The notes below the pieces were generated by a model. That model worked only from the letters and a program-made list of their open reading frames with translations. It was not told the origin of the DNA and made no database searches. Both the position numbers and the translations under genes were made by a program. 64,000 nt of DNA from Octopus sinensis (Eukaryota): contig NC_042997.1 in assembly GCF_006345805.1 (NCBI RefSeq), positions 59,830,001 to 59,894,000 on the forward strand, in the 5' to 3' direction. How positions within the stretch are numbered: position 1 is the stretch's first letter; the number at the start of each line of letters is the position of its first letter. This document shows positions 13,871 through 58,980 of the stretch, in pieces.

Positions 13871-13954
13871 TCACTTATAAATACAAGTCAGCTGCTTGAA
13901 ATTCAGACAATCCAGAGCGGCACAGCCTAAATTCTCGATATCATCGGCCATAAT
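13871..13954 (-). CDS. CAP-superfamily gene, terminal exon G, copy 1
   Basis: Acceptor ctctgtctattccag, phase 0. Translates IMADDIENLGCAALDCLNFKQLTCIYK then TGA (GCA...C...C.Y CAP signature). Confidence 0.85.
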   Translation of the reverse strand: MMADDIENLGCAALDCLNFKQLTCIYK

Positions 13955-14539
13955 CTGGAATAGACAGAGCAAAAGTGTGAGCAACTAAGACAAGGAGAGA
14001 GAAGGAGAGGGAGAAAGGGGAGGGGAAGAAAGAAGGACTGAGAGAGAGAAAGAAAGAATGATTAGGTCAACAAGAGGGAGAGTGGTATAGATTAAATAAT
14101 GGTAAAGTGTGAGAATGAGGGATAGATATGATGATAGAGAAATAGAGAGAGTGAGGAAGAGAGAGAAAGAAAGTGAGAGAAAGATAAAGAGAGAGAGAGA
14201 GTAAGAGAGATGTAGATAGAGAGAAATAGAGTGTCATGAGCCATAATCTGGAATAGACAGAAAAAGAGTAACTAAGACAAGGAGAGAGAAAAAGAGAGAG
14301 GAGGAAGAAAGATGTATTGAGAATGAGAAAGAGAGAATGATTGACTCAACAAGAGGGGAGTGGTACAGAGTAAATAATGGTAAAGAGTGAAAATGAGGGA
14401 TAGATATGAGGATAAGGAAAGAGAAAGAGAGGAGAGAGAGGAGCGAGAGAGGAGAGAGAGAGGAGAGAGAGAGAAACAGAGCATATTTTCCCTTGTTTAC
14501 ACGGAAAAATAAAAAAAAAACAGTTACCAGGGCAGCAAA

Positions 14540-15685
14540 AAATCACTCAAGTAATAAGGACGTAACATCCTGTTTGTAAAGGTAGAAACTCCGGATTGAT
14601 GTGAAATATTTTGTATAATATATGTAAATAAATAATGGAGTTAAACGCAGGTGTTATTCAAATTCCTTTACTTCCGACATATGTTTCGAAGACAACATTG
14701 GTATTATTCCAAAAGGAATAAGATGGTGCAAAACAATGTAATCTTCTCATCAGGGAAAGAAAGAAAGAAATCAAACTCATCAATAAGGCATTTTAACAGA
14801 ATGTGATGAATGTGTATAATGATGAACGGAACGCTATTAAAGTTTTTGTTTTTTAAACCGTTAGAGGATATAACGTCAAAGGTAGCCTATAGAAAGGGAA
14901 GAGTAAAGGAAAGAAATAAGCAGAAAACTAATAAAGGAGAAATATAGAGCGATATGTGAATTAGAATAAAAGCTAAAAGGCTTGGAAATAGATATTTCTA
15001 GTGGAAGTGAAAATGTAAGAAGAATATCAATGTTGAAATTATATAGAATGGTAGGTATCACTTATATGAACTAAAGGTATGTTTCTGCCAATGTTTACAC
15101 CGATAAACACGCTCTATAAACGTGTTTACAAGGGGATTTTTAGAAAATAGAATATAAAGGAGTTCACTATTACAGAGTTGGCAGAATTCTTTGCCTTTAT
15201 CGTATGGGAATGAAATGGAGAGAATCAACCAGTATAAATTTAATTGTTGATTATGATCTTTTAGATACCAAATTAATTTACTAAGCCCTGTACTGCTGCG
15301 TTTATTACTATCCCTAAATGTAAAGTAATGATTAGAAATTCTTTTAGATAACTGAGAAGAACTACCTATATATAAAAAAAGACATCGGTACCGGAAGTAA
15401 TTTTACACTGGTATAAATAGTTTTTAGTCTTAGAATTACTAGACATAAACTTAATTCTGTTGGAATTGACTTCAGAGACAATAACCTTGTTGTTAATATT
15501 TCTAGGGGGATGGTTAGTATTAGCTAAATTAATGTTAGTATTTTCAGTAATTGGATTCTTATTTAACAAATTAATATTATGTGAAGAGATACTTTGTGAA
15601 AGATTTGATGAGATTACATTTTTTTACACAATTTTATTCCTTTGGAATAATACCAACGTTGTCTTCGAAACATATATCGCCATTA
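14540..15685 (-). mobile_element. Penelope-like retroelement, 5'-truncated relic (GIY-YIG endonuclease plus pseudo-LTR)
   Basis: Frameshifted minus-strand frame NYLYQCKITSGTDVFF-YIGSSSQLSKRISNHYFTFRD..STGLSKLIWYLK...FCQLCNSELLYIL...RCKH is a PLE GIY-YIG domain. The 3' repeat carries the hammerhead, and a partial inverted copy of that repeat sits at about 15605-15680. Boundaries are approximate. Confidence 0.88.
14671..14758 (-). ncRNA. Type I hammerhead ribozyme (Penelope-type, minimal palindromic stem III)
   Basis: Minus strand reads tttcc-CTGATGA-gaagattacattg...caatgttgtcttc-GAAAC-atat-GTC-ggaag. The catalytic core is complete, stem II is long, stem I is ttcc/ggaa, and the predicted GUC cleavage lies between 14676 and 14675. 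Confidence 0.85.
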
Positions 15686-15686
15686 T

Positions 15687-55470: not shown

Positions 55471-58400
55471 AAAATATCTATTTATCTATCTATCTATCTA
55501 TCTATCTATCTATCTATCTATCTATCTATCTATCTATCTATCTATCTATCTATCTAATGTGATTTAGATTCAGTTGAATTAGGCACTTAAATTGAGTCGC
55601 CTTGTTAGGACGAACTTATTTGTACACTCCGACAGTATTAGGTGAGTATCAAACTCTACATTGAATTTTTTTCCATCTGATATTCATGCAGTGTATGCAG
55701 ATGGTAAGAGAATAAATCCGCTCTTGTTTGTTCAAACATGTACTTTACATAAAGATACTTTCCAAAATGTAGATTCCTGGATAGGTGAGTAAAATATAGA
55801 GTGAGTAAAATATAGATGAGTAAAAAAAGACTCTTATACATCTTTTAACTCATTTATATTTTACATATACATATATATTTACGTGTGTGTGTGTGTGTGT
55901 GTGTGCATGTGTGTGTTGGATCAGCTGACTTTCTGAAACGGAGCTGATGCTATATAAAACTGAATACAGAATATCTAATTAGACACGCAGTGCTCTCCAG
56001 CATAATTGCTAAAATTAATTTTGTCTCTTGATTCCAATTTTTAATTCAGAAGTTTATAAAATGTTTTATATACTGAGTAGTTTTCATGACTTTATATAAA
56101 AATAATTTTGTACAACGTATTTTCATTTAAAGATGAAATGAACCTTTTCTATTTATTTTATGTATTTTATTTATTTCGGTCTTGGCCAGCTTTTAAAATA
56201 ATTTTTATATGCTAAAAGGAAAACTTCTTTGTTGTTTTAAAACAGGCTATCGAAAATATATTGCCTTTAATATGCAGCTGTTTTAAGACATTTAGCTGCA
56301 GTATGAATCGCAGTATGAATCGCTGGGAAAGTAATTTAGTTGATTTCATAGCACCAAGTTTGAAGCCGTAACTTGAGGCAAAATGTCTGCTTGGTTCTGA
56401 GAGCTGACAGACTGAATAAATATTTTAACAACAGATGCAAATATAGGAGGTATTTTCGAAAAAAAAAAAGGCTAAATTATTGTATGCAAGTAATATTTTC
56501 GGGAAACTTAAGATGGCGAGTATTTTAGGTGAAGAGATCAACCCCGGGCAAGCTGAGAAAAGGCGTGAATCTTATGATATATTTCTCAAAATATAAAAAA
56601 CATTTGCTTTGCAAAAAGAAAGAGATACACTAAAAGTTTAAGTACTCCCATGGAGAAAGCGTCCACATTCTTTGCAGTATTACCTCTAGTTGTTTTAAAC
56701 CAATAAGTCACACTCAAACATTACGCCACAAAACCAGCCCTATACTCACAAAACTCTGTATATATATATATATATATATATATATATAATATATATATAT
56801 ATTATATATATATATAATATGAAGATATAGATGAATACATATATATATATTCGTTTATTCTAAAGAAAATTTATTCTTGGCATCACTTCAACATCCTTCA
56901 GGATACTAAAGAACATTACACTTGAAGAACGTGATTCATGGAAAATCCAATGTGACGATAAAGTTTAGGCTTCAAATAAATGTATGCAAGAAACCAAGCA
57001 ATGTTTCAAATACTGTTGCATTGTTAGTATACTCGATAATACAAGGATGAAACCGAAAACAGAAAGAAAATAGAGATGAAAAGGTAAAAAAATGTTTACC
57101 AAAAGAAAAAGTAGACAGATGAGACGTGAGAAAGAAAACGAAATGTTTGTGGTTTTTAAGCTAGGATTATTTAAAGAAAAGTACATGCGAAGAAAACCTG
57201 TGGATTGTTAGATTTCTAATCCCAATTTATATTCATTACGCACACATGTACACACAAACATATACTGTGTTCTTAAAACAAATTCTCATATATTATTTAC
57301 ATTAAGTTCCATCCTTACATTTGAACTAAGTTATCGGACAAAAATAAGAAAAAAAAATAATATAAAAAGATCCAAAATTAGGACACAAAGCACGAATGAA
57401 CAAAAGATGTTTCACCATCGTATTCTTTTGAGCTTTTTGTTCTTCATACTTAGAAATAACATTTATCAAGGGTTTGTATGATATATTTAGATTTCTATTA
57501 AACTTTGAAACAAAGACTCGTAGAAAATCATTTGAATATACTTTTTTGTATTAGATTTATTTGAATAGCTTCAATACAGAATAGTCCTACTGTACAAAGG
57601 ATGCTGCTGGTTGATAGAGATAGATGAGAATTTAAATAAGGAAGGAAATATCTCTAGGAATGCAAGCTGAAGCATGAGAGATACCACCCATGTTGGATGC
57701 TTGAAACCTTTTAAGTTATCTTCTTAATTTCTATTAAAACAACAATCTCATGCTGATGTCGTATATGTACTACTTCCTTTCAAATTAGTGGAATGATTCA
57801 GGCAAAAGGACTGTAAAACTTCGTTTACTTTATTTACTTTTTGCTTATTAATAGGGAAGTAAGTTTATGCAAAATAAAGATAAAATTATTTTGTTTCTTT
57901 GCTAACAAGATGAAATATTGCCTTCAAGAATTTACAAATGTGCATATTCTGATGAACAAAGAGTGTTTTTTTTTATCACGCGGCTGTATAATTTTCTGTT
58001 CCCGCAACCTGTTCTGAATTGTTGAAAGAATTTCCTTCCAAGAGACTAATTGCATAATTTGAAGTGAGGAAGGGTAGGTTAAGTTAATTTTCCGTCTTTA
58101 TTCGCTTTGCTGGAAGATGGTTTGTTTATATTAAAGAGAAGAAATAGAGATATTTCTGTTTAGGGGACTCCAGATGAAACATTAAATTTCAGTAAAAATA
58201 CACTTAATTGCTGCTCTCATTTCCAAACAACTAAAACTTATAGTGGCATAATTGAAAATATTTTTCATTAATACTCATTTCACTAAATACAAAAATATTT
58301 GGACTGAAATGTAAAATGTATCAAATACCTAGAAGAAATTGTAGACCTTAATATAATCTCTTAATTTAGTATATTTTACTTTCTTTTCCAAATGCTTACT

Positions 58401-58861
58401 GCCTTACTTTCTTATTTGTATTTTCCATACTAAATCTTCATAAAGACAACACGATAAAAATGTTTTATTGATTACTTTAGATCTTGATAATAACACATAT
58501 TCAAATTAAGTATATAGAGGAACAACTTATATTTATTATGGTATGATTGGTAACATACCATAATAATATGTAATTGGTCGGGTGTTCATTCCTAAATGGG
58601 TTTCTTTTTTCTCCTTGAATAGATAAACAAATTTCGTATAACCTATTACGTTGTTAAAAGTTTGAATATTTAATAGATTTAACTATCATAAAATATTTAA
58701 TAAAGAGATAGGTGTTGTTATATATTCTATTGGATTACAAATAAGAATAGAAACTCTGGCTCTTGACACATGTTTGAATGTAGCAAGAACGACTGTGTTG
58801 AAGTAATTAAATTAAGAGTACATCGGTACAAAACAACAAAGTTAAATCGGGACAAACTTAC

Positions 58862-58980
58862 CTTGGCCAATAGAGACACACCAAGAAGGTTGGCTCATTA
58901 ATTACTTTTCCGTTTCCAAGATTAAGGGTAGGACACTGACGGATACTACAACCAAAAGAGGTGGTATTGTCCCAGAGCAT
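58862..58980 (-). CDS. CAP-superfamily gene, internal exon A (C-terminal part of CAP domain 1)
   Basis: Acceptor ttttatttctttcacag, donor gtaagt; 119 bp, phase 0 to 2. Translates MLWDNTTSFGCSIRQCPTLNLGNGKVINEPTFLVCLYWP, matching the CAP pattern vW..T..vGC....C...vC.Y.P. No convincing upstream exon was found inside the window. Confidence 0.92.

Follow-up and report, generated by a model that had tools for sequence, protein, structure and literature searches.

A two-CAP-domain gene of Octopus sinensis with a predicted pro-protein convertase site between its domains

The minus strand of the stretch of Octopus sinensis DNA analysed here (the window, 64,000 nucleotides of contig NC_042997.1) carries seven coding exons of a gene for a protein with two CAP domains. 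The exons lie where an initial annotation had placed them, their phases are compatible, they are bounded by AG acceptors and GT donors, and the last ends in TGA. In order of transcription, and all on the minus strand, exon A (the third coding exon of the gene, 58980-58862, phase 0 to 2) encodes the C-terminal strands of the first domain, CAP1, and exon B (the fourth, 35401-35310, phase 2 to 1) its four-cysteine hinge; exon C (24937-24827, phase 1-1) encodes a basic linker; exon D (24261-24182, phase 1 to 0) encodes the first helix of the second domain, CAP2, which continues through exon E (23981-23856), where the Y-P-G-P and T-N-F motifs particular to the family are found, and exon F (17154-17041), with G-C-R-T-P and C-N-H, to the last coding exon, G (13954-13871), where it ends, without a hinge, at C-x-Y-K-stop. 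The possibility that this stop hides an overlooked splice donor was ruled out, since orthologues terminate at the identical point. Exon G lies in a near-identical 839-bp tandem duplication, which also contains a second, identical copy of it (13115-13032, minus strand). The joined seven-exon product matches the database protein P0001 over residues 124-364; two further coding exons are located outside the window, at 90067-89849 and 176735-176580 in its numbering, and the latter (exon 1) encodes a hydrophobic N-terminus, the signal peptide.

Between exons B and C lies an optional 27-nt micro-exon (29823-29797, minus strand, phase 1-1), which was overlooked in the initial annotation and which adds nine residues that include an N-V-T glycosylation sequon. 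It is present in RefSeq isoform X1 (P0006), P0009 and P0010 have an equivalent N-x-T insert, and loose ends at it are found in contig sets X1, X2, X8 and X10. The proposed splice from exon B to exon C (35310 to 24937) is borne out by transcript contigs, which join the two with or without the micro-exon. Contigs from runs of five studies connect A, B, the optional micro-exon, C, D and E, with a loose end at E; none of the runs is on record as RNA and their kind is a guess, though the contigs show splicing at the predicted junctions. The A-B joint and the joint from C to the next exon are each seen in all four runs in which they were sought. Skipping of exon C (B to D, which would be in frame) left no joint or loose end in the four runs, whose contigs drop rare forms. 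P0021, P0024 and P0026 have an Arg-rich optional insert in CAP2, of which the window's E-F intron holds no convincing counterpart.

The presence of two CAP domains was corroborated: Pfam CAP (PF00188) matches the joined product in two stretches (E 3e-26; 92.9 bits against a curated cut-off of 21.1). In the predicted structure both domains are well folded (mean pLDDT 83, pTM 0.58), the Foldseek matches of the model are CAP structures (alpha-beta-alpha sandwiches), and an Atlas model of CAP2 has a TM of 0.78 to an SCP cluster. CAP1 and CAP2 share 22% identity across 124 residues. The CAP cavity is described as lined by a tetrad, made up of a pair of His and a pair of Glu residues (PMC10189770). 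In alignments read by eye, neither octopus domain has the full tetrad: CAP1 keeps one residue of the four, the Glu after Trp, with both His positions substituted, and CAP2 keeps two, Glu320 and His343. The tetrad is absent from many accepted CAPs too. Identity of CAP2 is 71% with distant clusters of the cephalopod clade and about 50% with sequences from abalone and oyster; for CAP1 the corresponding figures are 55% and 20-29%. All the cysteines of CAP1, and Trp53, are kept across 27 rows. By sequence comparison, the octopus gene is a member of a mollusc-wide two-CAP family.

Contrary to its first description, the gene is not hidden. Both of its isoforms are in RefSeq as GLIPR1-like protein 1 (364/373 aa), X1 and X2 (XP_029635418.1 and XP_029635426.1; P0006 and P0001) being the octopus gene's own product. 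The suggested connection with venom glands is upheld by the O. vulgaris orthologue, which is among the venom-family CAPs in a proteome from the posterior salivary gland (PMC7693380), where it is protein group 300 (Tables S1, S4 and S5 of the supplement), listed in 364- and 373-aa forms with 10 unique peptides and as 'signal peptide Y'. Its identification as the orthologue is based on a 92% match to XP_014788268.1 and on the 364/373-aa lengths. CAP proteins are noted in the same source as among the most abundant protein families of octopus venom glands (PMC7693380). The CAP2 type is single-copy and conserved mollusc-wide, which fits a general extracellular role equally. Peptides of the protein were not found in the skin-mucus and ink proteome supplements, at least one of them truncated, which is not evidence of absence. 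RefSeq names and gland tables treat it as a plain CAP, the two domains, the cleavage site and the role of the micro-exon going unmentioned there. The openly searchable literature yielded no paper that deals with cleavage of the octopus double-CAP or with its accessions. Thus the gene is known, and its processing feature is apparently undescribed and testable.

That feature is the sequence R-R-L-R-R/Q in exon C (codons at 24840-24857, minus strand), a predicted pro-protein convertase site with Arg225 of the 364-aa form at P1 (the slash marks the predicted cut). The conservation to be expected of such a site holds among cephalopod-clade orthologues and breaks down among those of gastropods. R-x-R-R/Q is present in all 17 full cephalopod-clade sequences, which form four clusters at 90% identity and are close kin rather than independent cases. 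Against two distant clusters of that clade the site is 71% identical, compared with 8-17% for the 12 residues that precede it and 50-57% for exon C over its N-terminal half. Basic residues run through the whole octopus linker, where they make up 11 of 37 positions, and R-x-[KR]-R by itself appears in 8-39% of linker shuffles; with Gln following, the frequency is 0.6-1.8%, and in unrelated CAP matches Gln follows none of 31 such motifs. In bivalve-type sequences R-x-K-R/Q is found in six of nine (five of eight bivalve-clade rows, plus P0181); its shuffle frequency in the bivalve-clade rows is 0.014-0.068 each, for a narrower pattern that was picked after inspection of the data, and the broader motif is expected in 7-39% of shuffles of these long, Arg-rich linkers, for which no alignment with the linker of cephalopods is possible. 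The three bivalve-type rows that have no site lack a whole segment starting at or near it, and are short, probably spliced forms. Fourteen other relatives (mostly gastropod, the named ones all gastropods) have no R-x-[KR]-R/Q and for the most part no basic linker, and P0182 is likewise without it. The gastropod orthologues keep both domains, joined by Pro-rich or acidic linkers; cleavage is therefore no family-wide need, and the family works uncut there. Two relatives are stand-alone CAP2-type proteins: P0063, in which a signal peptide is followed by R-Q-K-R/Q, a spacer and the domain, and P0143, without the site. The CAP2 domain can thus exist as a free chain. In the structural model pLDDT drops below 50 over the segment that holds the octopus site (residues 227-239), low confidence that suggests exposure and does not prove it, and a helix, also at low confidence, is drawn over residues 215-236. 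The convertase P-domain family has 12 matches in the genome.

On balance, we lean towards convertase cleavage of the protein into products of about 24 and 16 kDa. A single secreted precursor, composed of signal peptide, CAP1 with its hinge, basic linker and hinge-less CAP2, would be cut after R-x-R-R by a furin-type convertase in the secretory pathway, releasing the ~24 kDa CAP1 half and a ~16 kDa CAP2 half with N-terminal Gln, which may then be capped as pyroglutamate. The two halves have 10 and 6 cysteines, both even numbers, as intra-domain bonds predict, so that no disulphide would be expected to hold them together. Both may have a binding rather than a catalytic role. The micro-exon would set glycosylation of the linker, and splicing in bivalves would include or omit the site. 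A tryptic peptide starting with Gln is not diagnostic of the cleavage, since trypsin itself cleaves after Arg225; such peptides also cyclise in vitro.

The reading that divides the locus into adjacent CAP1-only and CAP2-only genes has a precedent in O. bimaculoides, whose locus RefSeq splits into 203-aa and 142-aa models, and exon B could be read through to a stop 29 nt beyond its donor. In all four runs, however, contigs leave B at the donor into the micro-exon or C, C is entered from one or other of B and the micro-exon, and no contig covers the read-through; full two-domain proteins are, moreover, recorded for O. sinensis, O. vulgaris, Argonauta, gastropods and bivalves. With the exons in joined contigs the two-gene alternative fails for the main transcripts, and we give it hardly any credence; as the initial annotation had it, no signal exon for CAP2 alone was seen and the single-gene reading stands. 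A far more serious contender, to which we assign a substantial though minority likelihood, is that the protein stays whole as a tethered two-CAP molecule in the manner of nematode ASP-1, its basic linker binding polyanions, matrix or membranes through conserved arginines. The uncut architecture of the gastropod orthologues, with their site-free linkers, speaks for this, as do the conservation of exon C over its N-terminal half, the absence of the site from short bivalve forms and the fact that the top structural match is itself a two-CAP protein. What it leaves unexplained is why Gln comes after the motif in every row of the cephalopod clade, in six of bivalve type and in one relative that is a CAP2 standing alone, as against none of the 31 controls.

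Cleavage might also be a maturation step that makes no polyprotein, the halves remaining associated, without covalent bonds, in a two-chain protein, or CAP1 and linker serving as a pro-domain for CAP2. CAP2 is indeed the more conserved half, and chains of its type do stand alone, but the retention of every CAP1 cysteine and of Trp53 exceeds the needs of a disposable pro-piece, and we regard this reading as unlikely. The fullest version of the cleavage model, which we advance tentatively and consider doubtful as a whole, is that cephalopods and bivalves have a true CAP polyprotein, split by a convertase into two unlike, tetrad-less CAPs, the second pyroglutamate-capped; that splicing tunes this step, through a conserved glycosylation micro-exon in cephalopods and, in bivalves, a charged helical segment that bears the site and is optional; and that snails keep the tethered form. 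If the protein is cut between its domains, studies of the full-length chain are studies of a precursor, and cut (cephalopod and long bivalve) and uncut (snail and short bivalve) forms provide a natural comparison; if it is not, this is an ordinary annotated double-CAP gene.

Among known CAP systems, the nematode protein Na-ASP-1 (PDB 3nt8), likewise secreted with tandem CAP domains, is the top Foldseek match (E 3e-14), at 16% identity and a whole-chain rmsd of 21 A; the model does not reproduce its domain arrangement, and octopus CAP2, unlike Na-ASP-1, lacks a hinge. ASP-1 is known in single-chain form. Human GLIPR1 and GLIPR1-like structures (PDB 3q2r, 3q2u) align to octopus CAP1 and the four-cysteine hinge (residues 35-197, E 1e-10; TM 0.77 by target for GLIPR1). 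Human GLIPR1 is a single domain with a metal-binding tetrad, whereas the octopus protein has replaced the His positions of CAP1 and added a second domain. A C-terminal membrane anchor is a defining feature of the GLIPR1-like subfamily; none was seen in the octopus protein, the C-terminus of which is polar. On these alignments, the RefSeq GLIPR1-like name is a reflection of CAP1 similarity only. A source that cites Na-ASP-1 as the earliest tandem-CAP structure also describes plant PR1, a CAP protein from which cleavage frees a second active product (PMC10189770). This product, the CAPE peptide, has 11 residues and is cut off after C-N-Y-x. In flatworms, the SmVAL11-type double-SCP proteins are described as having two long-diverged CAP domains per chain, conserved phylum-wide (PMC3435950); the main text of that paper has no match for 'cleav'. 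The octopus protein also has two diverged CAP domains in one chain, a likeness of architecture. In the octopus protein, by contrast, the cut is predicted to fall at a basic site that separates two folded domains; octopus CAP2 terminates precisely at the C-x-Y-x position of the plant PR1 cut.

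The seven minus-strand exons that the initial annotation joined between 58980 and 13871 (exons A-G) are bounded by AG acceptors and GT donors and agree in phase, with TGA closing the last, and every motif quoted for them is found at its position on that strand. The gene is real, but it is not hidden, since the joined product is contained exactly, preceded by a signal peptide and the opening portion of the first CAP domain (CAP1), in the RefSeq protein P0001 ("GLIPR1-like protein 1 isoform X2", Octopus sinensis, 364 aa). A protein search with the linker exon retrieves P0001 at 100% identity, together with an Argonauta orthologue. 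The signal peptide and start of CAP1 lie in two exons outside the window, ~26 and ~113 kb past its end. Isoform X1 (373 aa) has nine residues more than X2, contributed by an optional 27-nt micro-exon at 29823-29797 (minus strand). The window is animal DNA, AT-rich and microsatellite-rich, and belongs to contig C1; the 2.7-Gb genome has one CAP2-type locus. The 373 codons are spread over a coding span of ~163 kb, with ~86 kb taken up by the first coding intron and ~31 kb by the second (window-equivalent 90067-176580; loci L003-L017). An 839-bp near-identical tandem duplication at 12613-14290, either recent or an assembly artefact, contains the last exon and 3' flank; near 14248 and 13410 the acceptor and the first bases of the exon recur in two short copies, which could serve as decoy acceptors. 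Tandem repeats of 184 bp and 23/46 bp (1051-1452 and 20671-20783) are probably mobile-element remnants. A cluster of CAP-domain ORFs without introns, 315-359 codons long, lies at G000:C1:109311187-109368569; one of them contains an in-frame TAG.

The O. bimaculoides annotation divides the locus into 203-aa and 142-aa models, as would suit two separate genes. Contigs assembled from five runs of five studies (run type guessed as RNA) speak against this. They are presence evidence only, and rare forms could be missed. In 4/4 runs contigs splice exon A to exon B and exit B at its own donor, and none in those four covers the read-through to the nearby stop. Exon C, the linker exon, follows either the micro-exon (runs X1, X2 and X10 listed) or exon B directly (run X4), and is spliced to D and then E in 4/4. 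Exons B and C are thus joined in one transcript, as had been proposed, which settles the question for the main transcripts and leaves two genes a most improbable reading.

The linker carries R-R-L-R-R|Q, a predicted pro-protein convertase site. R-x-[KR]-R is the furin consensus, N-terminal Gln of secreted peptides becomes cyclised, and the genome contains convertase P-domain genes. R-x-R-R followed by Gln, the proposed cleavage motif, is present in 17/17 full cephalopod-clade sequences (four clusters; four split O. bimaculoides models, from which the linker exon is absent, were left out). In shuffles the bare R-x-R-R-type motif is unremarkable (8-39%); motif plus Gln is remarkable (0.6-1.8%). 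Identity to the two distant clusters is 71% at the site, 8-17% over the preceding 12 residues and 50-57% in the first part of the linker. P0009 and P0010 are sister to octopods, 57-60% identical, and presumably come from squid or cuttlefish. The octopus micro-exon contributes an N-x-T sequon; both distant clusters include it too, and forms lacking the insert occur in each.

R-x-K-R-Q, a pattern picked after the data had been seen, occurs in 5/8 bivalve-clade rows (shuffle 0.014-0.068 each), and a stretch of 31-182 residues with abundant Glu, Arg, Lys and Gln comes after it; a mussel-like row provides a sixth sequence. The three bivalve rows that do not have it are missing the entire site-bearing charged segment. 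Its presence or absence separates two isoforms that RefSeq gives for a single oyster gene, and the same difference recurs in scallop-like and mussel-like pairs whose members come from different sources; we infer alternative splicing. Motif plus Gln is found in 0/14 other relatives (one has the motif before Pro), and Gln follows such motifs in 0/31 unrelated CAP hits. P0063, a stand-alone CAP2-type protein, has a signal peptide, R-Q-K-R|Q, a spacer and then the domain; another, P0143, has no such site.

Full-length relatives with both domains were retrieved from cephalopods, abalone, limpet, vent snail, whelk, sea hare, pond snail, oyster, scallop and mussel. A midpoint-rooted tree of 25 rows, near-duplicates and linkers removed, resolves cephalopods (100/100) and bivalves (95/90) each as a clade, alongside gastropod groups. 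Since the node uniting cephalopods and bivalves is not secure (86/94), we claim no order of events. CAP1 and CAP2 are 22% identical over 124 residues. CAP2 is the more conserved, has its own motifs, lacks a hinge and ends at C-x-Y-x. That is also where the cephalopod and bivalve orthologues terminate; several from gastropods continue into Arg-rich tails. The proteins P0021, P0024 and P0026 have an optional Arg-rich insert of 12-13 residues in CAP2 at the octopus E-F junction position, with no clear counterpart in the window. Read by eye, the cavity His/Glu tetrad keeps 1/4 residues in CAP1 and 2/4 in CAP2, so that metal-dependent catalysis would be improbable and binding the likelier role. In a predicted model (nearest structures Na-ASP-1 and GLIPR1) both domains are well folded (mean pLDDT 83), their arrangement is not confident (pTM 0.58), and pLDDT drops below 50 in the segment that contains the site.

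On our favoured and most likely reading, the precursor would be cut in the secretory pathway at the site between CAP1 and CAP2, giving halves of ~24 and ~16 kDa with 10 and 6 cysteines. The main rival, an uncut, tethered double-CAP protein, has perhaps a third of our confidence and is necessarily the gastropod state; cleavage into halves that remain associated is possible, at appreciably longer odds. An O. vulgaris protein with 364- and 373-aa forms, which matches the CAP1 model of O. bimaculoides at 92% identity, is reported from posterior salivary (venom) glands on 10 unique peptides (31.9% coverage), and the tables place it with the venom-family CAPs shared with an earlier study (PMC7693380, Tables S1, S4, S5). 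That proteome is uninformative on cleavage, being a tryptic digest with an external peptide list (PMC7693380); the Gln-starting peptide formerly proposed as a test is one that trypsin itself generates. The single copy and mollusc-wide conservation fit a general function in secretion or matrix as well as a putative venom role.

A literature search, with subscription papers and some supplements beyond reach, returned no report of inter-domain cleavage of the octopus protein, nor, within the same limits, any mention of the accessions tried. The gene is annotated and its superfamily known; to this it adds a plausible, apparently undescribed processing site between CAP1 and CAP2, which is easy to test. 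The end of CAP2 (13871-13890) coincides with the C-x-Y-x position that immediately precedes the reported cut by which plant PR1 releases CAPE1. Tandem CAP proteins are already described (PMC10189770; PMC3435950), as is a processed CAP, plant PR1/CAPE1 (PMC10189770).
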